64,000 nt of DNA from an uncultured virus (IMG/VR IMGVR_UViG_3300034065_000114) (IMGVR_UViG_3300034065_000114:1-64000); one strand, 5' to 3'; positions 44,906 through 62,939 are shown, numbered from the stretch's first letter. Numbers and translations are program-made. The notes: generated by a model from the letters alone, not told the origin.

Positions 44906-46870
44906 ATGAAGAAGTTTCTACTCTTACTTTTAGCTATGCTGGTCTGCCCGCGCGCAGATGCCGGCCTTACGATGCCCTATACCGACGAGGTGCAGAACGC
45001 CGCGGCCGACGCCAACACGGGCACCACTGCGGGCGAGCTTTTGTCGAATGACTTGACGGCCATCGGCCAGCACCTCAACGTTCCCCTAAAGCTGTATTCA
45101 ACCGGCACTGACTCAAAACTCCATGTCGGTGCTAGCATCGTTTCCGCTGGTGACGGCGCGGGCAAAGTCAGGCCGCCTCTTAGCGGTGCGCTGAATACTG
45201 CTTGGACTGATACCACCATCGATTTTCAATCGGGTGCGGTCAGCGGCGGTACAATACATACAAACGGCAGTACGTTCGCCTTACCCACTATTACCACTGG
45301 CCATTACATCACTATGGCTTTGGGCTGGCGCAGCGATGGTACAGTTGACACAAACTTTTCGCCGGATACGTCGACCCTCGGTGCACAGCAGGATGTCGGT
45401 CTGACGTTTCTGCCTCTCGCAGGCGAGCAGAAGCTTGGATACGTCCTGCTTCAGGCCACTGGCGCTGCGGCATACAAGACAGCTGGATCCGCCACCGCAA
45501 TCATCCAGATGGCTGTAAGCGGCTCTCCTACGATTATTAGATTGCTTGACGCGGAGGCGTCGCCACTGACTACTGCGGGCGACCTCTACTACTTCTCAAC
45601 TAAAGACGACCGGCTTGCGCTCGGCGCCACCGGTACCGTGCTTCACGGAGGCAGCAGCGCCCCGTCGTACAGCCAGGTCGTGAATGCCGACGTCGCTACT
45701 GGCGCGGCGCTCGCTTGGTCGAAGCTCGCCACCGGCACAGCGAATCAGTTGGCCTATACCAACGGCTCCGGTGTCCTAACGACATCGTCGAACATGGCCT
45801 ATAACGGCTCTCAAGTCACACTCGACCTGACCGACAGCTATGGCGGGTTCAAGGTCAAGGGAGCGAGCGGTGGCGAAGCATCGTTCAGCTTGCAGCCGGA
45901 TAACGTCAGCGACGGCGCCACCGGCCAGTGGATCTTCTACACCAACGGCTCAGGGCTCAATAGTCCCAACGACTTTGCCATGTATGACAGCCAGCTCAGT
46001 GCTCCAGCGCTGATACTGCAGTCCTCAACTGCCAACGTCGGTATCGGCACGAACAACCCGCTGTCCAAGCTCTCTGTGGGCGTGGGCAGCGTCGACGGTC
46101 TTCGGGTCACGTCCTCTGGATCGGGCTATGCCCGCATTTATGGCCCTGGCACAGGCAGCTATAGGAACTATGGCTGGGCAGCAAACTATACATCTGCCGG
46201 ACTCTTTGAGCTGCAGCAGTCGACGACCGCCGCCGGTGACCCAACCCTAACCATCATGGGAACGGATGGAACGCACTTCGGCTTTGGCGGTGGTGCTAGT
46301 GGGCTTAATAGCACTCTTAACGTAGACGGCAACGTCAGCGTAGGGAACGCCTACTACGGAACTGCGGCACCGGTCCATGGGATGATTATCCAGGGATATT
46401 TGGGACTTGGTACAACAAGCCCCAATACGTCGCTCCATGTTAATGGCGGGACGACTATGCAGGGCCTTAGTTCCCCGTCGCTACCTACCGGTAGCGCGGG
46501 CAACGGCGTCCTTTACTTCGATACTGTAGCGGAGAAGTTCCTCTATTCGGAAAATAATGGAACATTCATCTACTGGGACACCCCGGCTGCCGCCTACACA
46601 CTGACCAACCACACGATCAGCGGCACTGCCAATACGCTGCAGAACCTTGCGACTGAAGATGATTTTACCGGTGATGGGACGACAACCAACTTCACCCTAG
46701 CCGAGACCATGACGGCTACCCGCTTCGTCCAGGTCTTTGTCGACGGCCGAGTCCAACGCGAAGGCGGCAGCTACTCATGGACTCGCACCAATGCAACACC
46801 TGGCCATATCGTCTTTAATGTGGCCCCGGACAGCGGGTCTTGGGTCGACGTAACGATCGTGAATCAGTAA
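44906..46870 (+). CDS. Fibre-like protein with Sec-type signal peptide
   Basis: MKKFLLLLLAMLVCPRADA; PLTTAGDL, NVGIGTNNP and LGLGTTSP fibre repeats. Confidence 0.78.
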   Translation: MKKFLLLLLAMLVCPRADAGLTMPYTDEVQNAAADANTGTTAGELLSNDLTAIGQHLNVPLKLYSTGTDSKLHVGASIVSAGDGAGKVRPPLSGALNTAWTDTTIDFQSGAVSGGTIHTNGSTFALPTITTGHYITMALGWRSDGTVDTNFSPDTSTLGAQQDVGLTFLPLAGEQKLGYVLLQATGAAAYKTAGSATAIIQMAVSGSPTIIRLLDAEASPLTTAGDLYYFSTKDDRLALGATGTVLHGGSSAPSYSQVVNADVATGAALAWSKLATGTANQLAYTNGSGVLTTSSNMAYNGSQVTLDLTDSYGGFKVKGASGGEASFSLQPDNVSDGATGQWIFYTNGSGLNSPNDFAMYDSQLSAPALILQSSTANVGIGTNNPLSKLSVGVGSVDGLRVTSSGSGYARIYGPGTGSYRNYGWAANYTSAGLFELQQSTTAAGDPTLTIMGTDGTHFGFGGGASGLNSTLNVDGNVSVGNAYYGTAAPVHGMIIQGYLGLGTTSPNTSLHVNGGTTMQGLSSPSLPTGSAGNGVLYFDTVAEKFLYSENNGTFIYWDTPAAAYTLTNHTISGTANTLQNLATEDDFTGDGTTTNFTLAETMTATRFVQVFVDGRVQREGGSYSWTRTNATPGHIVFNVAPDSGSWVDVTIVNQ

Positions 46871-46895
46871 GATAGCAGCACGAGGGGAAACCGTG

Positions 46896-48056
46896 ATGAA
46901 ACCATTCTTGATAGCTCTGCTAACAGCCCTGTTCGCTTCGCAAGCGCAGGCGCAAAGCTTGCAGAAGGGCCATACTACCGAGCTCCTGCACGAAAGCGCG
47001 GAAGCCCCTATCGGCGTTATCGTCGGCACGCAGCTGAACAACGTCATCCATGACATTGGGTTGACAGTTGACCAGCCTGGGAGGCTATCTCAGACCTGGC
47101 CGACGGCCGACGCAGTGCTGCATATCCGCGCGCCGCAAACCACCGCCGGGGATACCTCGGCGCGCTCTGTCGCGGCAACTAACAACTTGGTGCCTTTGTC
47201 CACGACCGACACGACGATTAACTTCCTGACAGGCGGCACCACCGGCGCCACGGTCTATACCAACGGCGGCACGTTCACGCTGCCCACCTCGACGATTGGC
47301 AACTACGTTCGTATGGTCGCGGTGCTTCAGAAAGACGGCACGATCAATACGAACTTCTCAACGCAGCAAACCACCGTGGCCGCGCTGACCAACCCCGGCA
47401 CGCTGCTCGGCTCACTATCGGGTGATCCGCTTGGCTGGCTAGATCTGCAGGCCGTGACCACGACCACCTACAAGTCCGCTGGCGCAGGAACATCGGTGAT
47501 CCAGAACTCGGTCAGCGGCACGCCGACGGTCACGAGTTTCGGCTCAGGCGGCGGTGGCGGCAGCGGCGCCGGGTCAAGCTTCATCCTCTGGCACCCGGTT
47601 GACGGCAATGCTCCGATCTATGCGGAAGAGTTCAGCGAGTTCACCTATCAGTTCCCGGCGGGCGGGGGGCAGCAGCTGCGGGGAACGCTGCAGATTCCTG
47701 GTACGTACATCGCGGGGAATCCCGTAAAGCTGTACTTGTCCCAATATTCTCCTAGCGTTACAGGAACGAGCCTCCTGACGTGCACATCGTACCTCATCCA
47801 AAAGTCCGCTGCGACAGCAGTCAGCTCGACCACTAACAGCAGGACCTCGACAAACACCGCGATCAACCTCGCGACGCTGGCGGTGGCTAACGGCTACTAC
47901 CAAGTTACCTGCGATGTGACGGACACAACGGGGCACATCAATTCGGTGGCAGTGAGCCCAGGAGATATCTTAGCGGTCTATGTTACTCGCGGGACGGATA
48001 CAGATACCGCGGACCTACGGTTTTTGCCGTCGGCGGTTGGCATATCCCTTCAATAA
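46896..48056 (+). CDS. Fibre-associated protein with Sec-type signal peptide
   Basis: MKPFLIALLTALFASQAQA; N-domain paralogous to 44906. Confidence 0.75.
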   Translation: MKPFLIALLTALFASQAQAQSLQKGHTTELLHESAEAPIGVIVGTQLNNVIHDIGLTVDQPGRLSQTWPTADAVLHIRAPQTTAGDTSARSVAATNNLVPLSTTDTTINFLTGGTTGATVYTNGGTFTLPTSTIGNYVRMVAVLQKDGTINTNFSTQQTTVAALTNPGTLLGSLSGDPLGWLDLQAVTTTTYKSAGAGTSVIQNSVSGTPTVTSFGSGGGGGSGAGSSFILWHPVDGNAPIYAEEFSEFTYQFPAGGGQQLRGTLQIPGTYIAGNPVKLYLSQYSPSVTGTSLLTCTSYLIQKSAATAVSSTTNSRTSTNTAINLATLAVANGYYQVTCDVTDTTGHINSVAVSPGDILAVYVTRGTDTDTADLRFLPSAVGISLQ

Positions 48057-48066
48057 CGGTTAACTA

Positions 48067-48876
48067 GTGCAAAACATCATTTACAGCATAAAAGACGAAA
48101 CGGGGCGAGTTCGCTACATTGGGCAAACATCCTTGGGGCCATCTCGTTTTAAACGCCACATCTCTGTGGCAAAAAAGGTTAGGGGCCGCGCTCCCGCAGT
48201 TATCTGGTGGATCAGAAAGCAGCTAGATCTTGGACTTTGCCCTGTCTTTAGCATACTCTACACTGTTAGTGATTCTGAGCAGCTGAATGACCTAGAGATG
48301 ATTGCCATTGCTAATTATAGGGCTACAGGGACTGATCTATTAAACCACACTGACGGCGGTGGCGGAATGCGCGGCTTTCGGCTTTCTAAAGAGCACGTCG
48401 AGAAGATGGCCCAATCAAGGCGGGGTAAACCTAGTTGGGCCAAAGGTATACCAAAACCTCCAGAGGTGAGAGAGAAAATACGCAAGTCCCTATTAGGTAG
48501 GAAGATGCCGGAGGAACAACGACAAAAACTTGCCGTAGCTATGACCGGTACCTCTCGTGGTGTAGGAAGGAAGCATAGCCGGGAGCATTGCGAAAAATTA
48601 AGAAGGGCTGCTCTTGGCAAGAAACGTGGCCCAATGAGCGAGCAGGGTAGAAAAAATATAAGTGCGGCGAAAAAAGGCAAGCGCCTGGGCTACAAGCATA
48701 GCGAAGGGTCTAAGCGTAAGATGAGCGAGAGTCGGCGCGGCATACCCTGTGCCCTTCGCGGCAGAATCTTGCCCGAAGAGACCAAAAGAAAGATGAGCGA
48801 GGCTCGCTATAGATGGTGGGAGCGCGCTAGGATGTCAACGACTACTGACGAGGCAGCCAATGAATCAGCTAATTAA
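48067..48876 (+). CDS. Free-standing GIY-YIG homing endonuclease with NUMOD3-type repeats
   Basis: IIYSI...RYIGQT, R.KRH, LLN.TDGG, repeated (H)SEE.K.KMS. Confidence 0.9.
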   Translation: MQNIIYSIKDETGRVRYIGQTSLGPSRFKRHISVAKKVRGRAPAVIWWIRKQLDLGLCPVFSILYTVSDSEQLNDLEMIAIANYRATGTDLLNHTDGGGGMRGFRLSKEHVEKMAQSRRGKPSWAKGIPKPPEVREKIRKSLLGRKMPEEQRQKLAVAMTGTSRGVGRKHSREHCEKLRRAALGKKRGPMSEQGRKNISAAKKGKRLGYKHSEGSKRKMSESRRGIPCALRGRILPEETKRKMSEARYRWWERARMSTTTDEAANESAN

Positions 48877-51433
48877 ACTTCTCGCGTTCATTCTAGCATT
48901 CGGCAGCAACATTGCTCTTGCGCAGTTCACGCAGGTCCAACGCCAAGAGTTTGGTCCCCAAAACCTACTTGCGCCGTACAACCCAGGTTTTGAAAACGGC
49001 AAGGCTAGGTGGACGAACACCGGCGCAACATTCACGACGACCACGACGTCGTCGAATGTCGGCTTTGGCACGACCAGCGCTGTCTGGACACCGTCTTCGA
49101 CAGGGCAAACGCTGGATAGTACCGCGGTGACGTTGCCTGCGGGCATGCTGGGGGCGAACTGCCTTGCCTCTCTATGGTACAAAGGCGGGGACGCCAACAC
49201 GACCTTCGAGGTCTATGACGTCACCTCCAGCGGCATCGTCGCTGGCGCGTCGCAAGTCCTGGCCGCCCAGACCAACTATGCCCCCGTCCTGATCCCGTTT
49301 ATCTGCCCAGGCACGCAAGATTCGATCAAGCTGCGCCTGACGTCGACCGCGAGCGGGGCTGCTGTCTATCTCGACCAAGCCTTCCTCGGCACGCCCATGG
49401 CGAACAGCGTCGTCCAGGCGAGCCCTGTGGTTTATAGCCAGGGTAAGACGGCGATCGTCGCGGTCGGTTCGACCGGCAACAACCAAGCCGGCCACATCCT
49501 GACGGCGACGGAGTGGCCGTTCACGACGGCAGGGAAACTGGCCTACTACAACTTCTCGTCATCGACGACGACCGATAACTCGGGGGCGCTGTCGTGCTCT
49601 AGCGGAACAGTGGCTTGTACGCTGACCGCGACTGGTCCGCCGACGATTGGCAGCGCCAACATTTTCAATACGGCTAGCGCAGCGCTGACGCTGAACGGGA
49701 CGTCGCAGTATGTCAGCAGCTCAGATTCATTTTTCAACCCAGGTAATGGCAAATCTTTTGATGTCGGCGGTTGGTTTGCAGCTACCAACTGGTCATCTGG
49801 GGCCGCCCATTATTTGCTGTTCCAAGGGAACACTAGTGACGTCGCTTTCGGTATTTATCTAAATACAGACAATTCCATCAATTTTGCCGCCACCAATACA
49901 GCTGCTTCGTTTGATACGACCATCAGTATCGCTGCTCCTGGTTTTTCGGCTAACAGTTTTCACCACTTTGCTATGGTCTATAATTATACGACCACAACTC
50001 TTTATGCCTACATTGATGGAAAGATGGTTGGTAGCGCAATTCAAAGCAATGTGCGCGCGGCATCAAGCGCTAATTTCAAGATAGGTGCGCAAAATTCTCA
50101 GTATTATTTTGCGGGTGCTATTGAAGATGTTTTCTTCATAAATAATACCGTCATGACGTCCGACGATATCCGCAAGACGATGGCGTTGTCGATCGCCCAC
50201 AACAAGAACCTCCCAGCAGCCAGCCAGCTCTGGTCCGGCAACTGGTATCGAAGTGATGCGAACATCGCTAACCAGCTCACGTCGTCTTGGATCGTGTCAA
50301 AGACGCCGAACACGCTCTATGCCGACTTCTCTGACTTCGCTGCCGGGGCCTTCGTCGACTACTCAATGCAGACCTTCGGCATGACGGCGACGACGGCGCA
50401 GTTCACGGGGTATGACTCTGGGTGGCTATCTTCGACCCCCGGTACGACGATCGCGCACGGCCTCGGCGGGGCGCCGGACACGGTGAAGGTACAATACCAG
50501 TCTGGTGCGTTGACAGCCGGTGCTTATCAAGAGTTGCCTAGTGGCTCATACTGTTCGTATGACAGTACCAACCTCTATTGCGACTGGACGGGGCTGACCG
50601 TGAGCGGCTCGGCGCAAGTTCGCATCTTGGCGTGGCGCGGAAACGCCAATACTGTAGTGCCCGCCGCTAACGCGAGCACGAACGGGCTTGTCAACACGAG
50701 CGCGCAGACGTTTGGCGGGACGAAGACTCTAAGCGGAGGCGTATTACTCCCCATAGACACGGTGTCATCCGCAAACTATGCCATGACAAACTCTGACGGA
50801 TACGCTGAGGTTGATGTCAGCACTGGATCGTCGCAGCGCACCATTACATTGCCGAATCCGTCTCAGAACGTCGGCCGAAAGATCACGATCAAAAAGACTG
50901 ACAGCGGCGCTGGCACGGTGCTGATTAATCCATACGCTTCGGAGACGATCGAGGGGGCGTCGAGCAACACGCTTAACGCGCAGAATAGCTTCGTGCGGCT
51001 CTACACCGATGGTACCAACTGGTTTAGTGAGGGATCTTGGGACTTGCTATCTGCCACAGGAGCTGGATCACCATCTAATGGCAATTACGTCAATAGTGCT
51101 AGCCTGTCTTTGCCTCCCGGTGTCTGGTCAGTATCTGGCATGGGTGAGTTCAATCAGGGTGGCACACAGCTCGGCACTCCGGGCATTCTAGCGGTCGGTA
51201 TTTCTACATCATCGTCATTGCTAGATTCGACCAGTAGTGGTGGTTTCTTTGCGACATTTGGTGTCAATACCATCATTACTGCATCAAACACCGGACGCTT
51301 CCCGGTTAACCCGCGCATCTTTAGTTTCACGTCGGCAACGACGGTCTATCTTGTTCAGCGTATCGACTACGGTACTTTAAACGGTTTCGCTTTTGGCGCT
51401 GCTACCAATATGGCAGCTATTCGGTCGAAATAA
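48860..51433 (+). CDS. Mosaic adhesin/fibre with signal peptide, CBM-like and LamG domains
   Basis: MNQLIKLLAFILAFGSNIALA; NPGFENG...W; FHHFAMVY....LYAYIDG...F.G.IEDV; TLP....GR...IKKTD. Confidence 0.8.
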   Translation: MNQLIKLLAFILAFGSNIALAQFTQVQRQEFGPQNLLAPYNPGFENGKARWTNTGATFTTTTTSSNVGFGTTSAVWTPSSTGQTLDSTAVTLPAGMLGANCLASLWYKGGDANTTFEVYDVTSSGIVAGASQVLAAQTNYAPVLIPFICPGTQDSIKLRLTSTASGAAVYLDQAFLGTPMANSVVQASPVVYSQGKTAIVAVGSTGNNQAGHILTATEWPFTTAGKLAYYNFSSSTTTDNSGALSCSSGTVACTLTATGPPTIGSANIFNTASAALTLNGTSQYVSSSDSFFNPGNGKSFDVGGWFAATNWSSGAAHYLLFQGNTSDVAFGIYLNTDNSINFAATNTAASFDTTISIAAPGFSANSFHHFAMVYNYTTTTLYAYIDGKMVGSAIQSNVRAASSANFKIGAQNSQYYFAGAIEDVFFINNTVMTSDDIRKTMALSIAHNKNLPAASQLWSGNWYRSDANIANQLTSSWIVSKTPNTLYADFSDFAAGAFVDYSMQTFGMTATTAQFTGYDSGWLSSTPGTTIAHGLGGAPDTVKVQYQSGALTAGAYQELPSGSYCSYDSTNLYCDWTGLTVSGSAQVRILAWRGNANTVVPAANASTNGLVNTSAQTFGGTKTLSGGVLLPIDTVSSANYAMTNSDGYAEVDVSTGSSQRTITLPNPSQNVGRKITIKKTDSGAGTVLINPYASETIEGASSNTLNAQNSFVRLYTDGTNWFSEGSWDLLSATGAGSPSNGNYVNSASLSLPPGVWSVSGMGEFNQGGTQLGTPGILAVGISTSSSLLDSTSSGGFFATFGVNTIITASNTGRFPVNPRIFSFTSATTVYLVQRIDYGTLNGFAFGAATNMAAIRSK

Positions 51434-51443
51434 GGGAGACACC

Positions 51444-52031
51444 ATGATCCGCATCCTTCTCTCCATCCTCCTCCTGCTCTCCACGACGGCCCGCGCCGAC
51501 GACGTGCAGGGGATTTTCTACAACGCCGTGACTGGACAGGTTTCGGCTAAGACACGAGCAAACGGAGATAAACTTTTAGACCAGACGGCGTTGGCAGCCG
51601 ACGCGATTTATACGTGCGACATCCTCTCGAATTTTGCATCTGGATGGAGCAGCAGCTCGAATACCTACAACACCAACTCTTCAACAAACAAGTACATAGA
51701 CACGCTTAGTAGTTATAGTGGCACTACGTGGACTGCCAAAGTTGCTGGCACCTATCGCGTAACAGCAACCGGATACATCACCAAGACCTCGGGGACGTTC
51801 ACCACAGGCGATGCTATCGCTGCCGCCTTTATTAAAAATGGCTCGATTTATGGAACTGGGCAGAATGTCGATGGCTCTGGCGCCGTAGCTACCAACCCGT
51901 ACACGCTGACAGGATTTATTCCCATGGCTGTCGGTGACACGTTGATTGTCAGATTGGGCTGGAACGGCACTGGCGGACATACGTTCACTGGCACGGTAAC
52001 CTATGCCTGCCTCACTGTTTCACGTCTTTAA
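51444..52031 (+). CDS. Small signal-peptide protein with C1q-like/fibre-tip domain
   Basis: Start 51444 (MIRILLSILLLLSTTARA; AAGGGAG RBS); WTAKVAGTYRV...MAVGDTL. Confidence 0.75.
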   Translation: MIRILLSILLLLSTTARADDVQGIFYNAVTGQVSAKTRANGDKLLDQTALAADAIYTCDILSNFASGWSSSSNTYNTNSSTNKYIDTLSSYSGTTWTAKVAGTYRVTATGYITKTSGTFTTGDAIAAAFIKNGSIYGTGQNVDGSGAVATNPYTLTGFIPMAVGDTLIVRLGWNGTGGHTFTGTVTYACLTVSRL

Positions 52032-52126
52032 TTGAGGTGACTATGAACCGCATCCTAATCCTATGCCTGCCTCACTGTTTCACGTCTTTAATTAAGGAGC
52101 ACCCATGAACCGCATCCTAATCCTAT
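52000..52126. repeat. Duplicated gene-end/gene-start junction
   Basis: 34 bp at 52000-52033 equals 52060-52093; 22 bp at 52043-52064 equals 52105-52126. Confidence 0.9.
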
Positions 52127-52698
52127 TCCTCGCCATCCTCTCCACGTCGGCGCAGGCGACTGGTGTAGATATCCCTGCGGCAAAAAACCTCACGGGGGGA
52201 AAGAGCTGCCTCTATAGCGGATCAAGCGCCGAGGTCTGTGCCGCAACGGCCGGTACAGCGCCGAGTGGCAACGTCGTCGGGACGTCGGTGACGATTAAAA
52301 CGTCAAGCGGCGTGAACGTCACGTCCGGGACGCAGGCTTATCCGATCTTCGGATCGGCGTCGGTCCCAGCTGGTGTCTGGTTGCCTTGTGTAAATATACA
52401 GATTGTCGATACAGGCACCGCCACGGTCAACGAGTCAGATGCCATTGGGTTCACTACGGATAGCAGCGCGACGACATGGAGTGACCTAGATCTTACGGGC
52501 ATCACGAATTCGGTTACGCCAAGCGTCATATTGGGGGGTGCAACGCTGACAGCCACGCAGATTCGGTGGGGCGCCGGTTCGTGTTTTCCACCGATTACAG
52601 TAGCGTCGCCGACTACTTATTATTTCAAGTCGATCAATCGTGTGACCTCTGGGACGCTGACATATAACGGATTTTTGACATTCACCCGCGTCTACTGA
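52105..52698 (+). CDS. Small signal-peptide fibre-tip-like protein
   Basis: MNRILILFLAILSTSAQA; VPAGVW; TVASPTTYY. Confidence 0.75.
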   Translation: MNRILILFLAILSTSAQATGVDIPAAKNLTGGKSCLYSGSSAEVCAATAGTAPSGNVVGTSVTIKTSSGVNVTSGTQAYPIFGSASVPAGVWLPCVNIQIVDTGTATVNESDAIGFTTDSSATTWSDLDLTGITNSVTPSVILGGATLTATQIRWGAGSCFPPITVASPTTYYFKSINRVTSGTLTYNGFLTFTRVY

Positions 52699-53531
52699 TG
52701 CGCTCTCTAGTCTTCTCCGGCGAAGGCGCCAAGGGCGGCTTCCAGGCCGCCATTGCTTTACAGCGTGCGCAGCAGCCTGATCTAGTAATCGGCACCAGCT
52801 CGGGCGCGGTTAATGCTGTCGGCTATGCTTACCTAGGCCCGCAGGGCCTGGTAAATCTATGGAAGACGATCAATAGCACCAGCCAAGTCTTCCGGCTGAG
52901 CGTGCTGGACGCGCTGGTAGGCAATGGCCTCTACTCGTCAGCGCCGATCAACAAGATCCTTCAGGATGTGATCTACGATAACAAGCCGTCCTGCGAGGTG
53001 ATCGTAACGCGCGCCAGTGACGAGACCGGCGCACTCGAATACGTCTCTAATCGTGCCGTAGGCACAGATGAATTCTATGAGGCAGTCTGCGACGCCATCG
53101 CCATCCCCGCAGTGGTCGACCATCCCGATGGATTTGTTGACGGCGTTGTCGGCACGGACTTGCCGCTCAGCTATGCAATCCAATGCGGCGCTACCGATCT
53201 GACCGCGATCATAGGTACACCGCCTATTCCGTATGCCGTTACCTCCAAGGCATGGCCGGTGTTCGACTTCATCAGCCGCGGCTACCGGTTTGTCGACCTC
53301 CTCCTAAACCAAGTCATGTTTGGGGATCTTGCAGTTTGCACTCTGCGCCAACAGATCAACCCATCGATTACCCTACGGGTATACGGGCCGAGGGGGTATC
53401 TCTTCGAGCCACTTGACTTCGCGAGTACAGTTCATGGCGTGGAAATGGCTATGTCTGGCCAGTACGGAGAGTGGATTTACTCATCTAAAGGCTGGCAGTT
53501 CTCTGGTACACTTGGGGGGTATCCCTTCTAG
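52698..53531 (+). CDS. Patatin-like phospholipase
   Basis: LVFSGEGAKG oxyanion loop, GTSSG nucleophile, AIP and FVDG catalytic Asp. Confidence 0.88.
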   Translation: MRSLVFSGEGAKGGFQAAIALQRAQQPDLVIGTSSGAVNAVGYAYLGPQGLVNLWKTINSTSQVFRLSVLDALVGNGLYSSAPINKILQDVIYDNKPSCEVIVTRASDETGALEYVSNRAVGTDEFYEAVCDAIAIPAVVDHPDGFVDGVVGTDLPLSYAIQCGATDLTAIIGTPPIPYAVTSKAWPVFDFISRGYRFVDLLLNQVMFGDLAVCTLRQQINPSITLRVYGPRGYLFEPLDFASTVHGVEMAMSGQYGEWIYSSKGWQFSGTLGGYPF

Positions 53532-53540
53532 GAGGCCCCC

Positions 53541-53945
53541 GTGCAAGACACTACCGCCTTGTCCAACGAGGCGCTTCTCGCCATTTTCGCGGCAATCCAG
53601 GTGTTGTCCGTCGCCTTGTCAAAGGTAATCGACTATTTCGTTGACAAGAGCAGACAAGACCCTGTCGAGGCGAAGATCGATAAGCTTCTTGAAAATGATG
53701 ATGAGCGCCAGGAACATATCAAGTCCAACTACGATATGTACCGCATGATTGCCGACATGTACGCGATGCATAAAGTGATTGACGACGAAGGCCGTCCGGT
53801 ATGGTACTTCCCTAAGAAAATGCTGGATATGGCGGATAAGCATCTTGAGCTGCTGCGCGACATTTCCAATGCGCAGAAGGAAACAGCCTCAAAGATGGAA
53901 TCGATTGTTAGTCAACTTATGTGCATAAAGGCGAAGCATGACTAG
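53541..53945 (+). CDS. Single-pass membrane protein, holin/antiholin candidate
   Basis: N-terminal TM helix followed by a charged coiled domain. Confidence 0.55.
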   Translation: MQDTTALSNEALLAIFAAIQVLSVALSKVIDYFVDKSRQDPVEAKIDKLLENDDERQEHIKSNYDMYRMIADMYAMHKVIDDEGRPVWYFPKKMLDMADKHLELLRDISNAQKETASKMESIVSQLMCIKAKHD

Positions 53946-54882
53946 GTTATTTTTAATTTCATTAATAATCGCCTTGGCAGGCTGCCATAAAGCACCGTCA
54001 GCTGTGGACAGCAACGGGCTACCAGCCCCGGAAGACGTCTCCCACTTCGACAGCCAGTTTGCCACCATCGCCGGCCTAGCCATGCTCCACAACATCGACC
54101 CTAACGGGCAGATTGCTTTAAGCACGCCGGAGGGCGGATGGGCGGACCAGGGCGATAGCTTCTTCTTTACCGGGCTGACGCTGGCCGCGTTTGACTGCGC
54201 CCCCGGCACGCCGCTACTCGCGGTGATCCTGAAAGGCATTTACGACAACGGCGGCATGATCCCGAGCCACAACCCGCTGCTACCCAACTTCACAGTCACG
54301 TCGCGCGACCAAGTCACCGGGGTCATGCTTGGCCTTGTAGAGCGTTGGCGCCGCTGCCCTGCCGATAGGCCTGCAATCGCGGACGCTTGGCGCGCGCACA
54401 TCGCGTATGTCGCCGCCAACGGCGGCAACCTCGGCCCCACCGCGGACGCGGACATGCTCAGTTTGCGCTGGCTGTGGGGCCAAGTCGGTCAATACTTCGG
54501 CGTTGGCGGCGCCGGTGGTTCAGAGGATTCCTTTGAGGTGAGCCTCGTAGCCACGGCTGCGAGTATCAACGCAGCGCACAGTGCTTGCTACCCCGTTCAT
54601 ACTGGCACACTGCAGGCGATCATCGCGGCCAAGATCCATCAGCCGATCGCGGGTAAGGGTGCGTTTTGCGACGCAACCCGCGGACTTGGTTTACCACTCA
54701 CTGAGTGGATGTGCGGCCGCGCAACCGGCCAATCCTGGCTTAAGCAGTTCGAGCCGGATGTGTGGATAGACCAAAATCAGCGCTGCCCCAACTGGGAAGG
54801 CAAGCCGGATGCCGGCGGCAATATGACGCCGGGTGTTGACTTCTTCGAGGTTTACCGATTAGCCGCAGAAGGCAATAGCTGA
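53938..54882 (+). CDS. Lipoprotein, helical and Cys-rich
   Basis: MTRLFLISLIIALAGC lipobox. Confidence 0.78.
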   Translation: MTRLFLISLIIALAGCHKAPSAVDSNGLPAPEDVSHFDSQFATIAGLAMLHNIDPNGQIALSTPEGGWADQGDSFFFTGLTLAAFDCAPGTPLLAVILKGIYDNGGMIPSHNPLLPNFTVTSRDQVTGVMLGLVERWRRCPADRPAIADAWRAHIAYVAANGGNLGPTADADMLSLRWLWGQVGQYFGVGGAGGSEDSFEVSLVATAASINAAHSACYPVHTGTLQAIIAAKIHQPIAGKGAFCDATRGLGLPLTEWMCGRATGQSWLKQFEPDVWIDQNQRCPNWEGKPDAGGNMTPGVDFFEVYRLAAEGNS

Positions 54883-54907: not shown

Positions 54908-54953
54908 CAGGCTCTCTGTGCCCACTTTTTACCCACTTGGGGAGGATTATCCA

Positions 54954-55277: not shown

Positions 55278-55284
55278 TCGCCTA

Positions 55285-55329
55285 GCCTGCTTAGGGGTAC
55301 CCTAGCCTAAGCAGGCCATTGTTTCCTTT
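55285..55329 (+). terminator. Putative terminator
   Basis: GCCTGCTTAGG/CCTAAGCAGGC stem then a T-rich stretch. Confidence 0.55.
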
Positions 55330-55343
55330 CAGGAGAAACGCCA

Positions 55344-55805
55344 GTGGTTCTTTCTCTCGATCAAGTGAACGCCGGCGTCCCCTTCCTCCCGGGGCGCGCT
55401 CGCTACAATATCGTGACGGATCGCAGCTCTACCTGGGTATCGCATACGATGGCCACGGGCGCTGCGCTTGACGGCACGTACACCCAGACTGCAACTCAGT
55501 CTGACCCGACGCAGATCGACCCCGTCGTCACCGGCGGCGCCGCAGGATGGACGAACCTGACCCATGGCGGTCTCTTCACCATGCTCGCGGATACTGGCCG
55601 GGAGATCTTGATTGAGGGCTTTACTAACCAAGCAGGGGCTACATTCAGCACGGTTGACCAAAGCGGCAATGTGCTGCGGTCTACGCTAGACCTCTCGGTC
55701 TTGCCGGTTAAGCTTGCCCCCTACGAAACCATCAAAGCGACGGGCGGCGCCACCGGCGGTAAGGTCGCGTTCCTGGTCCGTTACGACTGGGCGACGATCC
55801 TGTGA
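55344..55805 (+). CDS. Hypothetical virion protein
   Basis: 153 aa; AGGAG RBS. Confidence 0.7.
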   Translation: MVLSLDQVNAGVPFLPGRARYNIVTDRSSTWVSHTMATGAALDGTYTQTATQSDPTQIDPVVTGGAAGWTNLTHGGLFTMLADTGREILIEGFTNQAGATFSTVDQSGNVLRSTLDLSVLPVKLAPYETIKATGGATGGKVAFLVRYDWATIL

Positions 55806-56410
55806 AATACCAAGGACAGCTAGCCCAAGTAGCGATCCGCCTCTTCGACACACTGGGCGTCCCCGTAACTGGGGTGCTTTACAGCGCGGTCACCGCGAAG
55901 ATCTGGAAAGCCGGAACCTTGGGGTTTGTGCCCAAAACCCTAGCGTCCGCGGATTGGCTAGAACTCGGCTACGGCATCTACATCATCAACTTCTCCCCAA
56001 CAGACATGAACACCCTGAGCACGTTTGCCTACTACCTGACTGGCGCGGGCTTTGTGCCATACTGGAACACCTTTGATGTTACACCGGCGCCGCTAAGCTT
56101 GCTGGCGAACACCCCCCTGTGTGTCGTCACCGGCAACGTCGTCGACCTAGGAGGCCAGTCCTTCTCGGATCAGAACCAGAACCTCGTGATCTCGTTCCGC
56201 ATCGCGAACGTGCCGCAGTCGGTCGGTGGAACCAGCATCGTCTCTTCGAAGTTGCTGACGACGACTACCGACGCCTTTGGCAACTTCTCTGTCGCCATCT
56301 TGCAGGGCGCCGTGGTTATCGTGGAGATCGCCCCACTCGGTCTACGGCAGAAGATCACGATACCCGCGACGACAAGCGCAACTCTTCTTAGCCTTCTTCC
56401 CCCGTTTTGA
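55802..56410 (+). CDS. Hypothetical virion protein, beta-sandwich-like
   Basis: 202 aa; GTGA overlap; TTTDAFGNFSV motif. Confidence 0.7.
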   Translation: MKYQGQLAQVAIRLFDTLGVPVTGVLYSAVTAKIWKAGTLGFVPKTLASADWLELGYGIYIINFSPTDMNTLSTFAYYLTGAGFVPYWNTFDVTPAPLSLLANTPLCVVTGNVVDLGGQSFSDQNQNLVISFRIANVPQSVGGTSIVSSKLLTTTTDAFGNFSVAILQGAVVIVEIAPLGLRQKITIPATTSATLLSLLPPF

Positions 56411-56433
56411 TAGCATGGGTACCAACCATAGCT

Positions 56434-56462
56434 AAAGAAAAACCGGGGGCCTATGCCGGTTG
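56434..56462 (-). terminator. Putative terminator of the small minus-strand gene
   Basis: AACCGG...CCGGTT stem followed by a T run on the minus strand. Confidence 0.55.
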
Positions 56463-56485
56463 TAAGGGTTATCGTGTGGACAGGA

Positions 56486-56629
56486 TTAGGTTGTTTGAGC
56501 AAATGTGCGGTTGACGAACAGAACGGCGAGAGCGCAAAGGCCTGCTCGCACGACATCCTTAGCAATAGCCTTAGCTGAAGGTTTGCAGGCTGAGAGCAGC
56601 GACAGGAACCAGGACCAGACCTTCTTCAT
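56486..56629 (-). CDS. Small protein (47 aa) with possible lipobox, not in the ORF track
   Basis: MKKVWSWFLSLLSAC-KPSAKAIAKDVVRAGLCALAVLFVNRTFAQTT; AAGGG RBS; own GGTATAAG motif and terminator. Confidence 0.62.
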   Translation of the reverse strand: MKKVWSWFLSLLSACKPSAKAIAKDVVRAGLCALAVLFVNRTFAQTT

Positions 56630-56667
56630 GACATGCCCTTAATTTATATGATATTCTTTCCAAGTTA

Positions 56668-56675
56668 CTTATACC
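56668..56675 (-). promoter_or_regulatory. GGTATAAG putative promoter
   Basis: 39 nt upstream of ATG 56629. Confidence 0.6.
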
Positions 56676-56691
56676 CATAAAGGGACGGAAA

Positions 56692-57777: not shown

Positions 57778-58468
57778 GGTCAACGACCCCAAAGGGCTGG
57801 ACGCCCTGCGCACAGCCAAGGCCGCGGTCAAGTTCGCAGAGAACCCGCAGAAGGCAGTCGTGCGCGCCATCGTCCGCTCTGCTCTTGAAAAGAACGGTGG
57901 GCTTTCCCCGTTGAAGATATTTTCAATGTTGAACGACCACTACGGCCACGAGTGGTGGGACTGGGAGCCCGAGACCATCTGGTCAACACTCGCCGCACAG
58001 CACGGCCTGGCAATTACGCCAGAGCTGCGTAACATCGTCGGCGCCCTTCAAACTACGCTGAACACCAACTTCGCGTTCGAGCTCTGGCACGTCTTTGAAA
58101 AGACCGGGCTGGCCTTCAATCTGCATCACGTCGACCCTGACGTGGTGCAGCCGCTCGAGCCGAATGAAGCCTCGCTCACAATTTTCATCCTAAAAATGCT
58201 GAGGCCGAAGCTTGACTTCGAGCCCGATGTGCTTGGCTATGTTGCCGCGCTGTGCCACGAGGCCGGCCTGGTCTATGCTCCGCCTGAGCTCTTCGGCCCC
58301 GTTGGCGCGCAAGGCTGGCTGGAGAAGATTGCCCCCGACCATAGCGGAGTTGGACACCAAACCGCGATGGCCTGGCCGCGCAAGCCTAGCGAAAGCGACC
58401 CGCCTGCGCTTAGAATACAGCTGGCCCGGCTCCATGAGATTAAAGACTATGTAAAAGCGAGGTTATAA
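57764..58468 (+). CDS. Hypothetical protein
   Basis: Start moved to ATG 57764; WWDWEPETIW motif. Confidence 0.72.
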   Translation: MAQPEVNDPKGLDALRTAKAAVKFAENPQKAVVRAIVRSALEKNGGLSPLKIFSMLNDHYGHEWWDWEPETIWSTLAAQHGLAITPELRNIVGALQTTLNTNFAFELWHVFEKTGLAFNLHHVDPDVVQPLEPNEASLTIFILKMLRPKLDFEPDVLGYVAALCHEAGLVYAPPELFGPVGAQGWLEKIAPDHSGVGHQTAMAWPRKPSESDPPALRIQLARLHEIKDYVKARL

Positions 58469-60654
58469 TGCGCAAGCTCTTACTGGCCCTGGCCATCCTT
58501 GGCTTCGCTCCTACCGCGATGGCGGACACACCACCAGCACGAGTTATCAATGCTGAAGCATACGATGCTGCGGGTAACCCTATCGGCAGCACCAGCGGCA
58601 GCCTCAACGTCAACGTGACGAATCCGACTGGTCTGCCTGCGGGGGCGTCGACCGCCACGCTTCAGACCGCGGGGAACACCACGCTATCCTCGATTGACAC
58701 CGCGCTCAGCTCGGTTTCGACCGCGGCCAATCAGGCGTCTGAAATAACCTACCTCAACGACATCAACGGTAAGATCTCGGCCTTCAACTTGAACACGAGC
58801 GGCGCCGAATACGACCAGGGCGTGTCGCTGCGCTTCGCCTCCCCTGGTGGCTCAATCCCGGCCGGTGTCGATGCAAACCCCCTGCGCGTAGACCCCACTG
58901 GAACGACGACTCAGCCCGTAAGTGCCGATTCGCTTCCGCTGCCTACTGGAGCGGCAACGGAGTCGACGCTCTCCACCCTCAATGGGAAGCTGACGACAAC
59001 GTCGAATGGGATCAAGGTGGACGGCTCAGCGACAACCCAACCAATCTCGGCCTCCGCGCTACCTTTACCGACGGGTGCCTCAACTGATGCCACGCTCAGC
59101 GCCCTCAGCGCCAAGCTAGGCACGCTCGGGCAGAAGGCCATGGCGGGCTCGGCCCCGGTCGTGATCGCCTCTGACCAGGCACCCATCCCGGTGTCCGGTA
59201 CGTTCAGTGCCACGAACCCGTCCATTGCCACGAACGGCTCGGCCATCCCGGCGAGCTCTACCCAGGTGGGCGGCAAAGACAACTCAGGCAACCTCCAGCC
59301 ACTTCAGCTGACGTCCACCAAAGCCCTGATCGTGGACGCCTCGGCCACCACGCAGCCCGTCAGCGGGACGTTCTGGCAGGCCACGCAGCCTGTCTCAGGA
59401 ACGATCGCCGTCTCGAACCTCCCCGTCACTCAGCCGGTGAGTGTAGCAAGTCTGCCTCTGCCAGCGGGTGCGGCAACGTCCGCCCTACAAAGCACGGGGA
59501 ACACCTCGCTCTCCGACATCGACACCAAGCTCCCTGCGCTTGTCAGCAGCCGTGTCCCCGTGGACGGATCTGGCGTAACTCAGCCAGTTAGTGGCACGTT
59601 TTGGCAGACGACACAGCCCGTAAGTGGCACGGTCACGGTCAACCAGGGAACGGCTGGCGCCTCGGCTTGGAAGGTAGACGGGTCCGCAGTGACGCAGCCT
59701 GTCTCCGGCACCTTCTGGCAGGCCACGCAGCCCGTCAGTGGCACCGTGACGGCCAACGCCGGCACAGGGACGTTCGCGGTCAGCGCCGCGAGCCTCCCGC
59801 TTCCGACCGGTGCCTCGACGGCGGCTAAGCAGCCAGCGCTCGGCACGGCGGGTACGGCCTCCACAGATGTCATCACGGTGCAGGGCATCGCGTCCATGAC
59901 CGCTCTGAAGGTGGATGGCTCAGCTGTTACCCAGCCCGTCTCCGGTACCTTCTGGCAGTCGACCCAGCCGGTGAGCGCGGCGAGCTTGCCTCTGCCAGCC
60001 GGTGCGGCCACCAGTGCGCTGCAAACGACCGGCAATACGTCCCTCTCCGACATCGACACGAAGACGGCAACGCTCGTCAGTGGTCGCGTGCCAGTTGACG
60101 GGTCCGGTGTGACCCAGCCCGTGAGCGGGACGTTTTGGCAGGCCACCCAGCCCGTCAGCGGCTCAGTCAGCGTGTCCAATTTCCCTGGCTCGCAGGCGGT
60201 CACTGGGACCTTCTGGCAGTCCACGCAGCCGGTGAGCCTGGCAACCGTCCCACTGCCCTCGGGAGCGGCCACGTCCGCCAATCAGGCGACGGAAATCTCG
60301 TCGCTGTCGTCGATCGCGGCCTCGGTGGCGGCGCCCCAGGCAAGTCCGGTGGGCCGGAGCTATGCCGACAGCATTAGGAACGTCTACAGTTCGACGACGG
60401 TCGGGACGGTCAGTTGGGTGCAGGTGAGTGCCTCCACGGCCGCCACCATGAATGTCGTGTCGATCTTCGACAGCTGCGGGCAGGTCCTGGAGCTTGGTGT
60501 TGGTGCCCTGGGCAGCGAGGTGCGGAAGACGCTCATCCCGCCCGGCGGCCTCTACAACTGGCCCCTTCTGATCCCAGGAGGCTCGCGCATATCGCTGCGG
60601 GCGGTAAGCGCGACGTGCTCCAAAGGAGAATTTGACATGACGGGTCTCAATTGA
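58468..60654 (+). CDS. TQPVS-repeat fibre protein with Sec-type signal peptide
   Basis: MRKLLLALAILGFAPTAMA; ~13 TQPVS, plus repeated GTFWQ and LPLPxGAxT. Confidence 0.8.
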   Translation: MRKLLLALAILGFAPTAMADTPPARVINAEAYDAAGNPIGSTSGSLNVNVTNPTGLPAGASTATLQTAGNTTLSSIDTALSSVSTAANQASEITYLNDINGKISAFNLNTSGAEYDQGVSLRFASPGGSIPAGVDANPLRVDPTGTTTQPVSADSLPLPTGAATESTLSTLNGKLTTTSNGIKVDGSATTQPISASALPLPTGASTDATLSALSAKLGTLGQKAMAGSAPVVIASDQAPIPVSGTFSATNPSIATNGSAIPASSTQVGGKDNSGNLQPLQLTSTKALIVDASATTQPVSGTFWQATQPVSGTIAVSNLPVTQPVSVASLPLPAGAATSALQSTGNTSLSDIDTKLPALVSSRVPVDGSGVTQPVSGTFWQTTQPVSGTVTVNQGTAGASAWKVDGSAVTQPVSGTFWQATQPVSGTVTANAGTGTFAVSAASLPLPTGASTAAKQPALGTAGTASTDVITVQGIASMTALKVDGSAVTQPVSGTFWQSTQPVSAASLPLPAGAATSALQTTGNTSLSDIDTKTATLVSGRVPVDGSGVTQPVSGTFWQATQPVSGSVSVSNFPGSQAVTGTFWQSTQPVSLATVPLPSGAATSANQATEISSLSSIAASVAAPQASPVGRSYADSIRNVYSSTTVGTVSWVQVSASTAATMNVVSIFDSCGQVLELGVGALGSEVRKTLIPPGGLYNWPLLIPGGSRISLRAVSATCSKGEFDMTGLN

Positions 60655-62939
60655 AGAAAAATCTGCTGCTTGGCCTGATGGCGTTCTTCAGCGCGACTGT
60701 TGCCTTGGGACAGGGCAACCCGGCCTATTACGCCGGCTCGCTCATGCAGATCTATCCGACGACAGGCATTTACCTGGACACGAGCCGCACCCTGCGGTTG
60801 GGGTCCGACAACGGCACGAACTATGTCGAGCTTGGCGCTCCGACGGGCATGTCAAGCAATTGGAGCTTAACGATGCCATCGACAGCCGGAAGCTCCGGGC
60901 TCCCATTGGTCACCGATGGTTCAGGCAATGCGTCTTGGAGCCTGGGAAATCAATCGTCGGCGTTAACAAGCGGGTACCTGTCTTCTACCGACTGGAACAC
61001 GTTCAACAATAAGCAAAGCTCTCTGACTTTTGGGTCAATCAGTACGACCACAACAGGCGTGACGATCGGCAGCGGAAACAACTCTACGGTCGGGCCTAAT
61101 GTCACAGTGAACATTCAAACGGCGAGCACGTCTCAGCCAGGCATTTTGGCTGCGGCAGATTGGAATACGTTTAATAATAAACAGCCATCCGGGAACTATA
61201 TCACTGCGCTGACAGGCAACGTGGTGGCGAATGGACCGGGTAGCGTGAGCGCTACCATTCAGGCCAACGTAGTTTCAAACTCGATGTTGTCGCAAATGGC
61301 GACCAACACCATCAAGGGTAACAACACCGGATCGACCGCCAACGCTGCTGACCTGACCACGGCGCAAGTCGCGGCCATCTTACCAGCGTTTATTGGTGAT
61401 AGCGGCGCCGGCGGAACACAAGGCCTTGTTCCTGCTCCTCCGACTGCCTCGCGGCAATATGCCGACTACCTATCGGCCAGCGGAAGCTGGGCATATGTCG
61501 ATCAAGCTCAGCCGATATACCCGGCGTTCAGCTTTGTAAATCAGACAGCGTCACCGCTGACAGCCACAAAATATGAAAACGTCGCTGTCTATACTGGCAT
61601 TGATGGGTACAAGCAATACGCTGCGATTGTCGCTGGCGGCGGTACTGGTACTCTTTTTATCTACGACGTGACCGATCCAAATATCCCTGTGTACATCAAC
61701 AAAATTGTATTGTCGGGGGCATACAATTTATCCATTGCCACAATATCTGGATCGGTTTACGCGTTCATTCCTTCTAGTGGTGGATCGACTCTTTACATTG
61801 AAAACATCACAAACCCATATTCGATCAGCACCTATTCGAGCCTTGCCTTAAGTGGTAGCCCAGGTGCTCTATACTCTTGCCAATACGCCAACGGGTATGT
61901 CTATGTCGCAACACAAAACAAGGGATTGACGGTCGTAGACGTTGGCGGTGGACTGGCTGGCGGCACACTTGCCGTGCCAATCCAAAGCTTCCAAGAGGGT
62001 GGCACAACCAACAAAACAGCGGGCGTCGCCGTCAGCGGAAACTACGTTTACACAACCAACTATCAAACGAGCTTTCCTGCCACCGTTCGATATTTTAAAA
62101 CCTGGGAACTAGCGGCAGGCGGCGGCACTCTTGCCGTACCGTTTCTTGCCAATACGTTCACCGTCGCTGGTGGTCCGACAGGAACTTCAAGTAAGCCTCA
62201 GGGAGTTTCGATCAGTTCGAGCGGCACGACGGCCTTTGTCACCGACGGAAATCAGTCAGTTTACGATATTATTGATATCACCACGCCGACCAGCCCAGTC
62301 TATTTGACGTATGTGACACCCACTTTTCCAACGGTCCCCAACAACACGCTCGGCGTGGCCATTCAGAGCGGAAACTACCTTTATATTTCAAGTGGAGCCA
62401 ATGCCACATACGGCGGCGCCATAGACTTCTTTGACATCACGAATAGATCTAGTCCGGTAAAAATCAGTACGGTTTACAACAACGACCCTTCGTCGCCATT
62501 TGGCGGCATCGCACTGGCCAATGGGTACATTTACGTTGCCGACTACGGTTCTGCAGCTGGTTTAAGTTATCTCGATATCTTCACTCAGCCTCAGATGAGC
62601 GTTCCATTTGGCAATCAAGTCGGTTCAACACTTTCTGTAAAAGGACTCACTGAGGGAATAACTCCAGTGACGGCCTCCTATACAGCGCTTACCACCGACA
62701 CCACGATCATGGCCAACGCATCGGCGGCCGCCTACACGGTCACGCTTCCAACTGCGGTAGGAATAGCTGGTAAGATCTACAACATAAAGAAAACCGACAG
62801 CAGTGCCAACGCCGTGACTGTTGGAACGACTTCGTCTCAAAACATCGAAGGCAGCACGACATATTCATTATCTGTGCAGTATAAATATGTTGACGTGATA
62901 AGCGACGGAACGCAGTGGTGGGTGATTGGAAACAATTAA
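60651..62939 (+). CDS. Fibre plus LVIVD-type beta-propeller protein with signal peptide
   Basis: MKKNLLLGLMAFFSATVALG; two DWNTFNNKQ repeats; repeated Y.YV...GL.V.D / DIT....P blades. Confidence 0.8.
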   Translation: MKKNLLLGLMAFFSATVALGQGNPAYYAGSLMQIYPTTGIYLDTSRTLRLGSDNGTNYVELGAPTGMSSNWSLTMPSTAGSSGLPLVTDGSGNASWSLGNQSSALTSGYLSSTDWNTFNNKQSSLTFGSISTTTTGVTIGSGNNSTVGPNVTVNIQTASTSQPGILAAADWNTFNNKQPSGNYITALTGNVVANGPGSVSATIQANVVSNSMLSQMATNTIKGNNTGSTANAADLTTAQVAAILPAFIGDSGAGGTQGLVPAPPTASRQYADYLSASGSWAYVDQAQPIYPAFSFVNQTASPLTATKYENVAVYTGIDGYKQYAAIVAGGGTGTLFIYDVTDPNIPVYINKIVLSGAYNLSIATISGSVYAFIPSSGGSTLYIENITNPYSISTYSSLALSGSPGALYSCQYANGYVYVATQNKGLTVVDVGGGLAGGTLAVPIQSFQEGGTTNKTAGVAVSGNYVYTTNYQTSFPATVRYFKTWELAAGGGTLAVPFLANTFTVAGGPTGTSSKPQGVSISSSGTTAFVTDGNQSVYDIIDITTPTSPVYLTYVTPTFPTVPNNTLGVAIQSGNYLYISSGANATYGGAIDFFDITNRSSPVKISTVYNNDPSSPFGGIALANGYIYVADYGSAAGLSYLDIFTQPQMSVPFGNQVGSTLSVKGLTEGITPVTASYTALTTDTTIMANASAAAYTVTLPTAVGIAGKIYNIKKTDSSANAVTVGTTSSQNIEGSTTYSLSVQYKYVDVISDGTQWWVIGNN

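Follow-up and report, generated by a model that had tools for sequence, protein, structure and literature searches.

Tailed-phage particles are taught as being assembled wholly in the cytoplasm. What, then, are Sec-type signal peptides doing at the start of fibre-like genes in the tail region of a tailed phage? The question is raised by a stretch of 64,000 nucleotides from an uncultured virus, which covers positions 1-64000 of a linear viral record of 74,471 bp in IMG/VR (IMGVR_UViG_3300034065_000114; CheckV completeness, 42%) and to which we refer as the window. Seven genes on its plus strand, designated here by their start positions (44906, 46896, 48860, 51444, 52105, 58468, and 60651), encode such proteins. 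An earlier note on this DNA had offered two readings, namely, that the proteins are virion parts which mature in the periplasm or that they decorate the surface of the infected cell. We found export itself to be well supported, but the data cannot decide between these two readings. Our own preference, to which we would attach a probability of a little under one half (about 0.45), is that the fibres fold in the periplasm and then dock on the finished particle at lysis. In full-text literature searches we met with no account of fibres of tailed phages that carry Sec leaders; a 2026 preprint says that tailspikes do not have to be exported, as is usually expected, and papers on phiCbK and on contractile injection systems (CIS) mention signal peptides only in other senses.

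Leaders were sought with our own rule set, not SignalP, over all open reading frames (ORFs) of the 74,471-bp contig. The rule called for a positive n-region, an uncharged hydrophobic h-region of 7 to 15 residues, and, in roughly the first 35 residues, a cut site with small residues at -3 and -1. As the earlier note had claimed, a tripartite Sec/signal peptidase I leader (basic tip, uncharged hydrophobic core, AXA-type site) stands at each of the seven starts. In the 44906 product its parts read MKK, FLLLLLAMLVC, and PRADA, with the cut before G (score, 5.6); the other scores were 5.1 (46896), 4.69 (48860), 5.18 (51444), 5.38 (52105), 5.21 (58468), and 4.29 (60651, where the predicted cut falls at TVA^L or ALG^Q). 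A GAGG- or AGGAG-like (Shine-Dalgarno-like) motif lies 5 to 10 nucleotides upstream of seven starts; that of 60651 is a TTG which overlaps the preceding stop, i.e., a coupled start. The tail genes at 37154-44898 had been said to have no such leader, and this contrast held over a longer tract in the same rule-based scan: no ORF between 19494 and 44898 was flagged at its own start, and low scores were returned for only three of them (0.58 at the ORF start, and 2.21 and 3.56 at internal starts). Among ORFs of at least 100 amino acids (aa), 7 of 15 in the region of the seven genes were flagged at their own start, versus 2 of 49 elsewhere on the contig (Fisher P = 2.9e-4); 51444, whose start lies 17 codons inside the longest ORF, is an eighth flagged ORF in the region. 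Measured against a leader frequency of 4.3% in 2,120 ORFs of fetched phage loci, a background set that is itself enriched for leader-bearing phages, the binomial P value is 1.3e-6. Leaders of this kind can be lost from databases when starts are chosen automatically: the public call of the window's own protein, P0001, starts at Met11 of 44906 and loses most of the leader, and a 177,025-bp contig carries a protein identical to the 44906 product except for its called start.

Three further exported candidates have an h-region that ends in a lipobox ([LVI][ASTVI][GAS]C), which was found in none of the seven. These are a 314-aa protein at 53938-54882 on the plus strand (LAGC, with 6 further Cys residues), for which domain-library scans gave no family, and two proteins encoded on the minus strand in the leftward gene block, at 7659-8564 (LAAC; 301 aa) and 8818-9387 (LTGC; 189 aa). 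The first of this pair is collagen-like, with a Cys-rich C-terminal domain and matches to Collagen (PF01391) and to collagen-like tail-fibre PHROGs. Because AXA sites and lipoboxes are both present, the host is probably a diderm bacterium. The Bacteroidota rule of Gln at +1 is not followed in the window, where the +1 residues of the seven are, in order, G, Q, Q, D, T, D, and L or Q.

Conservation of the leaders in homologues, which the earlier note had proposed as a check, was borne out both in orthologues and in whole clades. The orthologue P0002 (66% identical to 44906) has the leader MRRISLAFLALAALLGSRADA where 44906 has MKKFLLLLLAMLVCPRADA, both cut before GLT at the same RADA|GLT site, and a leader is kept likewise in the pairs 46896/P0005 (53%), 52105/P0276, 58468/P0274, and 58468/P0219. 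In three of these pairs the leader has drifted faster than the mature part (identities of 9/18 versus 101/149 for P0002, 3/18 versus 78/146 for P0005, and 6/18 versus 58/120 for P0219), and in the other two there is no difference (10/15 versus 104/148 for P0276 and 10/18 versus 65/124 for P0274).

A further comparison comes from a domain at the N terminus of mature 44906 and 46896 (37.6% identity over 213 aligned positions), here called the N-domain, which a domain hidden Markov model (HMM) finds on the contig only in these two leader proteins. A search of 1.84 billion representatives with its profile gave 388 relatives, with E ≤1e-30 for 107. We examined 151 rows, consisting of 149 listed database proteins and the two window proteins, and left out P0001 and also P0003, which is unrelated to the domain. 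In 113 rows the N-domain stands at residues 2 to 6 with no leader; in 18 (the two window proteins and 16 from the database) a leader precedes it, the predicted cut (residues 18 to 32) meeting the start of the domain (residues 20 to 32); in 13 the domain is internal, and in 7 it follows a short leaderless extension. The leaderless form is that of fibres from uncultured large phages (e.g., loci L082, L086, L088, and L090), whose N-domain is homologous (E down to 1e-66) and whose downstream modules are the same (LamG, S74, and the C-terminal tail-protein PHROGs phrog_31104, 9648, and 5939). These fibres begin with the domain at Met1, whereas in the window pair and the 16 database rows a leader has been joined exactly there.

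The tree places the leader rows in three clades, with 2, 4, and 14 members; counted in the largest are two longer proteins whose N terminus is likewise a leader or a lipobox. The free tree needs 3 to 5 changes of leader state, and a single leader clade is not rejected (approximately unbiased test, p-AU = 0.09). On these alignments and trees the leaders are stably inherited within the N-domain family and not a product of chance; we claim stable inheritance and not repeated gain because the single clade is not rejected. Repeated independent gain inside the family was a claim that we considered and dropped in view of the same value. The earlier note had held that homologues starting downstream of the leader would speak against export. 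Many such homologues do exist, but they represent a separate state of the family and not mis-called starts.

The cysteines provide what may be an independent signature of an oxidising compartment. In the clade of 14, two alignment columns hold Cys in all 14 rows, and the first of these is Cys in none of the 137 other rows. Leader-bearing members are richer in Cys than leaderless ones in two families, those of the N-domain (3.8 versus 1.9 per 1,000 aa) and of 58468 (7.5 versus 4.3), with P values of 5.6e-5 and 0.0015 from statistics that ignore relatedness. The mature forms of the seven contain, in gene order, 0, 2, 6, 2, 4, 2, and 1 Cys residues; besides the one that carries the lipid, there are 6, 4, and 2 in the three lipoproteins. 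An even number is found in 8 of the 9 Cys-having exported window proteins (lipid Cys excluded), compared with 7 of 15 leaderless late proteins, and such paired cysteines would fit periplasmic folding. Sequence, conservation, and the cysteine signal together argue that all seven proteins very probably undergo Sec translocation and cleavage by signal peptidase I.

What is exported appears to be fibre material. Domain and repeat matches show or strongly support that the mature parts of the seven are phage receptor-binding-type modules, and the fibre repeats described earlier (NVGIGT, DWNTFNNKQ, and TQPVS) are all present. The first gene (44906-46870; 654 aa) encodes a fibre that is cut after ADA (residue 19) and consists of the N-domain (residues 20 to 286), a region with a single NVGIGT, and a C-terminal socket-type domain (residues 583 to 654) to which we return below. 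The second (46896-48056; 386 aa) joins its leader (AQA) and N-domain through a Gly-rich linker to a C-terminal domain with 2 Cys. The third (48860-51433; 857 aa; leader ending in ALA) has its 6 Cys in three near pairs, a 65-aa fibre-tip domain, and, at residues 279 to 437, the LamG domain that had been proposed, well above the gathering score (PF13385; E = 2.3e-13; 51 bits versus 27.6). A GIY-YIG/NUMOD3 homing endonuclease gene (48067-48876, plus strand; phrog_314, E = 4.9e-24) sits between this gene and the second, its 3′ end overlapping the 48860 start by 17 bases.

The next two exported proteins are small. That of 51444-52031 (195 aa; ARA; 2 Cys) looks like a free-standing, all-beta TNF/C1q-type head in its predicted model, with fold matches at Z 8 to 9.8 to the Pgp3 C-domain, 4-1BBL, the short-fibre CBD of cyanophage A-1(L), C1q, Cbln1, and PRD1 P5. 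The C1q-like assignment made earlier may hold, at the level of fold only; the model is of low confidence (pLDDT 58), and jelly rolls are a common arrangement. The product of 52105-52698 (197 aa; AQA) has 4 Cys; both homologues found keep the leader (P0275, 99%; P0276, 70%), and its nearest Atlas clusters are viral, the Atlas searches having given only viral clusters below 0.9. On the stop codon of this gene lies the start of a leaderless patatin-like phospholipase gene (52698-53531, plus strand; PF01734, E = 1.9e-8), which stands inside the export cluster and possibly has a role in lysis or membrane remodelling.

The last two genes encode larger fibres. The 728-aa product of 58468-60654 (AMA; mature N terminus DTPPA; 2 Cys near the C terminus) contains 14 TQP[VI]S repeats and belongs to a very large TQPVS-repeat family (376 IMG/VR relatives), in which 38 of 120 listed relatives have leaders and the A|DTPP junction is common to many of these. 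The fibre-like product of 60651-62939 (762 aa; 524 IMG/VR relatives) contains DWNTFNNKQ twice, a propeller region of LVIVD type, and the 65-aa tip domain found in 48860. Its closest IMG/VR relative, in locus L002 (46% over residues 48 to 281), also has a leader. The propeller that the earlier note had named is a candidate drawn from a single LVIVD repeat match (23.3 bits versus a cut-off of 20.2). The 65-aa domain recurs as the C-terminal end of two proteins of cultured phages, a fibre-annotated one of the Thermocrinis virus and a hypothetical one encoded where the Drulisvirus ZH5 genome ends. PDB sequence searches with 53938, 48860, and 60651 returned nothing.

An AlphaFold2 (AF2) model of mature 46896 gave the N-domain at pLDDT 95 to 98, the C-terminal domain being poorly modelled. 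With an exhaustive structure aligner the top matches were N-terminal domains of phage receptor-binding proteins (RBPs), all of them weak: 8kec, the A-1(L) fibre (Z 5.3), SPP1 gp22 (5.0), and Mtd (4.7), followed by the 1358 RBP (4.3), the HFTV1 fibre (3.8), and TssK (2.9). Foldseek found nothing in the PDB at E ≤0.001 for the 46896 model, whose best match in BFVD was an uncultured phage protein (E = 1e-7). Leaderless N-domain relatives sit in fibre modules of large phages (the 116-kb L082, L086, L088, and L090), family members carry LamG and tail-protein or tail-fibre PHROG domains, and two leader-bearing relatives, P0017 and P0054, end in an S74 fibre chaperone. All members of the clusters looked up for relatives were metagenomic, and an IMG/VR scan with 44906 found no relative. 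Searched by tblastn against cultured phages, the 46896 N-domain and the leaderless member P0021 located the N-domain in none, P0021 matching only via its C terminus, to Synechococcus phage S-CAM1; P0241 was without a match. Motif scans with two narrow patterns from leader-bearing relatives, one of them for the leader plus DTPPP family, covered 185,579 species genomes and found no relative, and hence no sign of chromosomal copies in bacteria.

A candidate for a cytoplasmic partner of the exported fibres lies directly upstream of 44906. This gene (44629-44898, plus strand) encodes an 89-aa leaderless protein with an 'F.GDG..T.F.L' beta domain and weak matches to DUF4183 and to a tail-fibre PHROG. 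An HMM of this candidate socket domain also matches the C terminus of 44906 and two sites (residues 894 to 973 and 1173 to 1250) in a 1318-aa leaderless fibre-like protein (38693-42649, plus strand), a candidate cytoplasmic docking platform. Residues 1039 to 1159 of the latter are 41% identical to residues 58 to 178 of a 187-aa protein that matches Phage_cement_2 at residues 86 to 174. Because the socket domain recurs in 44906 and the 1318-aa protein, while the N-domain occurs only in the two leader proteins, the sequences suggest a plug-and-socket relation between exported and cytoplasmic proteins. The pairing of an approximately 90-aa leaderless socket gene with a leader fibre is found again in the distant clade of 14: directly upstream of the L085 leader fibre is a 91-aa leaderless ORF which matches the socket HMM and is 29% identical to the 89-aa protein. 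Behind the L085 leader fibre come three small proteins with a leader or lipobox, and lysis genes. Its gene (L085:1384-5686) is split by a frame break into 1384-1617, encoding the leader and the first 43 domain positions, and a remainder at 1550-5686, perhaps through a sequencing error or perhaps through a shift.

Leader-bearing fibres of other families occur in other phages as a minority. In IMG/VR, leaders were found on 3 of 80 ORFs with the DWNTFNNK motif and on 8 of 69 resolvable ORFs of the TQPVS family (11 further loci of which had no resolvable ORF), and at each such locus a second leader protein adjoins the first. In the unrelated myoviruses L006, L154, and L166 the leader fibres stand directly behind baseplate or fibre genes. 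The order in L154 and L166 is baseplate-like genes (so named from size and order, without a family-library scan), a leaderless fibre of 363 to 368 aa, the leader fibre, and a leader protein; in L006 two leader proteins come after a leaderless one of 162 aa, whose N terminus bears a tail-fibre motif.

How might these fibres reach a virion? We envisage that the leaders would thread the seven proteins through SecYEG and be cut at the AXA site, and that the mature proteins would fold in the oxidising periplasm of the diderm host. For 44906 and 46896, cleavage would expose the N-domain in the same register as in leaderless fibres that start at Met1. Late in infection, the opening of the inner membrane by holin would mix periplasm and cytoplasm inside a still intact outer membrane, and the folded fibres could then dock via the N-domain on leaderless socket-type proteins (89 and 1318 aa) that the completed particle carries. 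Further tips or branches might be supplied by the small TNF/C1q-like protein and by the LamG and repeat proteins, and the three lipoproteins would remain in the envelope, outside the particle. We lean toward virion parts because the fibre N-domain is kept in register, because the leaderless neighbour gene is conserved, and because of the tandem mass spectrometry (MS/MS) annotation of phage phi10:1 (see below); docking is favoured also because leader fibres occupy the fibre slot of unrelated myoviruses. A more general scheme, which we advance tentatively, is that of a two-compartment assembly: disulfide-stabilised exported fibres, amounting to about 1 in 10 members of several unrelated fibre families and masked by downstream gene calls, may join particles at holin opening via an N-terminal plug and sockets.

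Virion proteins with leaders are known from other phages. The pVIII and pIII proteins of filamentous phages, the second of which binds the receptor, have Sec-type leaders and are assembled outside the cytoplasm. Inoviruses, however, are extruded through the envelope and have no cytoplasmic particle, whereas the window phage is tailed, with a baseplate wedge, a putative portal, and an endolysin. Closer in kind is Cellulophaga phage phi10:1 (GenBank KC821618). Behind its tape-measure-like gp087, our sequence scan found a Sec-type leader followed by Gln on each of gp091 to gp094, all four of which are annotated in GenBank as structural protein from experimental MS/MS proteomics analysis. A tail-fibre PHROG takes in gp094, pectate-lyase-like sequences are found in gp093 and gp095, and a virion-structural PHROG also occurs among gp091 to gp095. 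The likeness is that of a run of leader-bearing tail-module genes, four of them annotated as virion proteins. The differences are that phi10:1 is a 54-kb phage of a Bacteroidota host and that it has Gln at +1 in gp091 to gp094 where the window residues vary; two domain HMMs (N-domain and socket) showed no homology between its proteins and those of the window.

Several considerations weigh against docking on the particle. The support from phi10:1 is a GenBank annotation in an unrelated phage of another phylum. We know of no described precedent for post-lysis docking in tailed phages. The leader calls themselves rest on a home-made rule set; the N-domain tree does not reject one origin of the leader; relatedness is left out of account in the cysteine statistics, and the Cys pair of the clade of 14 is one evolutionary event. 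The N-domain occurs in only two of the seven, and its shoulder-like fold match is weak (Z ≤5.3, with no Foldseek match in the PDB). Leaderless fibre-like proteins of the same phage (512, 1318, 187, and 384 aa) could suffice as its fibres. Three of the exported proteins are lipoproteins, one of them collagen-fibre-like, and would be expected to be membrane bound.

The strongest competitor, to which we would give about one chance in three, holds that the exported proteins never join the particle and instead reside in the envelope or periplasm, either masking the receptors of the phage (which would provide superinfection exclusion and keep progeny from sticking to debris) or acting as adhesins that glue infected cells to surfaces or new hosts. 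Export is equally well supported under this explanation, and the lipoprotein companions, one with collagen repeats, and the leaderless fibres of the same phage suit it well. Gene placement cuts both ways: the window genes lie in the late structural block, but in L111 and L095 the leader fibre stands, loosely placed and accessory-like, between an ORF of about 490 aa (a putative terminase by size and place alone) and one of 507 to 517 aa, and in L160 four leader proteins are encoded together, as an island, amid genes of non-structural appearance. Exported proteins of this general sort are known: Llp of T5, Lom of lambda, and Cor of phi80 and N15 carry a signal peptide or are lipoproteins and are encoded among tail or fibre genes. 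These are small outer-membrane proteins or lipoproteins that act at the host envelope and lack fibre modules, however, whereas the exported window proteins (195 to 857 aa) are themselves built of receptor-binding fibre modules.

Another analogue is the mosaic adhesive trimer (MAT) of Bdellovibrio bacteriovorus, a group of exported, phage-fibre-like adhesins shown on the cell surface; their layout is a signal peptide, a conserved beta-rich N-domain without a solved homologue, a phage-like trimeric fibre, and swappable tips, including S74 (PMC10769870). A leader directly before a beta-rich N-domain is found only in 44906 and 46896 of the seven, and S74 tips also occur in the window relatives P0017 and P0054. 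The comparison made in the earlier note thus stands for architecture but not for encoding, as MAT genes are chromosomal genes of a predator and the window genes lie on a phage contig, between a baseplate wedge and a putative portal. We liken the two by architecture only, and not as homologues. Leader-bearing genes of unknown function in Porphyromonas gingivalis phages have likewise been read as host-envelope modifiers (PMC10367356). What tips us away from residence in the envelope is that two of the proteins retain an ordinary virion-fibre N-domain in exact register, that a small leaderless partner gene is conserved beside the leader fibre, and that the phi10:1 leader proteins are annotated as virion components; moreover, seven different proteins are many for masking, and there is no evident route across the outer membrane.

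We consider it unlikely that the seven are soluble periplasmic lectins or glycan-acting enzymes which aid lysis and release by loosening capsule, exopolysaccharide (EPS), or outer membrane from within. The LamG domain, carbohydrate-binding-module (CBM)-like N terminus, and propeller region in 48860 and 60651 would suit such a role, as would the patatin-like phospholipase and Cys-rich lipoprotein of the same block, the leader cassette of L085 abutting holin-like and transglycosylase-like genes, and the pectate-lyase-like gp093 and gp095 of phi10:1; yet Pfam, PHROG, and PDB sequence searches found no catalytic family in any of the seven, and neither the repeat fibre 58468 nor the fibre N-domain is enzyme-like. 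Least of all do we credit the view that the hydrophobic N termini are chance, wrong starts, or uncleaved anchors at the inner membrane face: the calls do come from a rule set, one public call does start at Met11, and most N-domain relatives are leaderless, but ribosome-binding motifs precede the leader-encoding starts, leaders persist in orthologues and clades despite drift, the predicted cut falls where leaderless relatives have their Met1, and AXA sites in all seven are joined by the enrichment and the cysteine signal.

The source of the window is a very divergent tailed phage. Its leftward block encodes an SbcC-like ATPase, an Amidase_2 endolysin, an AEP primase, an HNH endonuclease (14659-15582, minus strand), and an SNF2 helicase. 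The rightward block includes a gp6-like baseplate wedge (30400-32838; phrog_6) and a minor tail protein (43414-44568; phrog_13892), and past the window end lies a 662-aa ORF (64828-66816), called a putative portal from its N-terminal sequence alone, without a family-library scan. In tblastn searches of cultured phages the wedge protein matched only Salmonella phage Arash and Vibrio phages, and these closest cultured relatives are myoviruses of about 180 kb (23 to 27% identity). No tRNA genes were found. The seven leader genes run in the same direction as the tail genes and lie close against them, and we infer that they are co-transcribed with them.

Some other features of the contig deserve mention. 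Amid the structural genes are a WYL-domain protein (33737-34873, plus strand; PF13280), whose C-terminal half is long, Gly/Ala-rich, and membrane-like, and a sigma-70 region-3-like protein (26994-27725, plus strand; PF04539, E = 1.1e-5; phrog_351). Two leaderless late proteins, encoded at 55802-56410 and at contig positions 63829-64827, have a common C-terminal beta domain (36% over 98 aligned positions); the second has a weak leader-like N terminus (score, 4.4) that we judged untrustworthy. A tandem DNA repeat at the left contig end (146-367, plus strand) encodes a run of LAPDR-type peptide repeats. Past the window, positions 68000-74471 differ from the remaining contig in that the ORFs, on either strand, are all short, overlap one another, and have an odd composition.

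The window proteins look like ordinary signal-peptide substrates fused to ordinary fibre modules, and they are members of phage fibre families. Where such proteins end up is directly testable, under either reading, in a cultured Cellulophaga phage system. If fibres are routinely exported, virion assembly gains a late extracytoplasmic step that is tied to the timing of lysis. Disulfides and other periplasmic chemistry would then be usable in fibres, which would matter for the expression and engineering of RBPs in phage therapy and diagnostics, and host-range prediction and gene calling would have to count leaders as part of these genes. If instead the proteins stay on the cell, the phage would be turning receptor-binding modules into envelope factors, a new kind of masking or adhesion.

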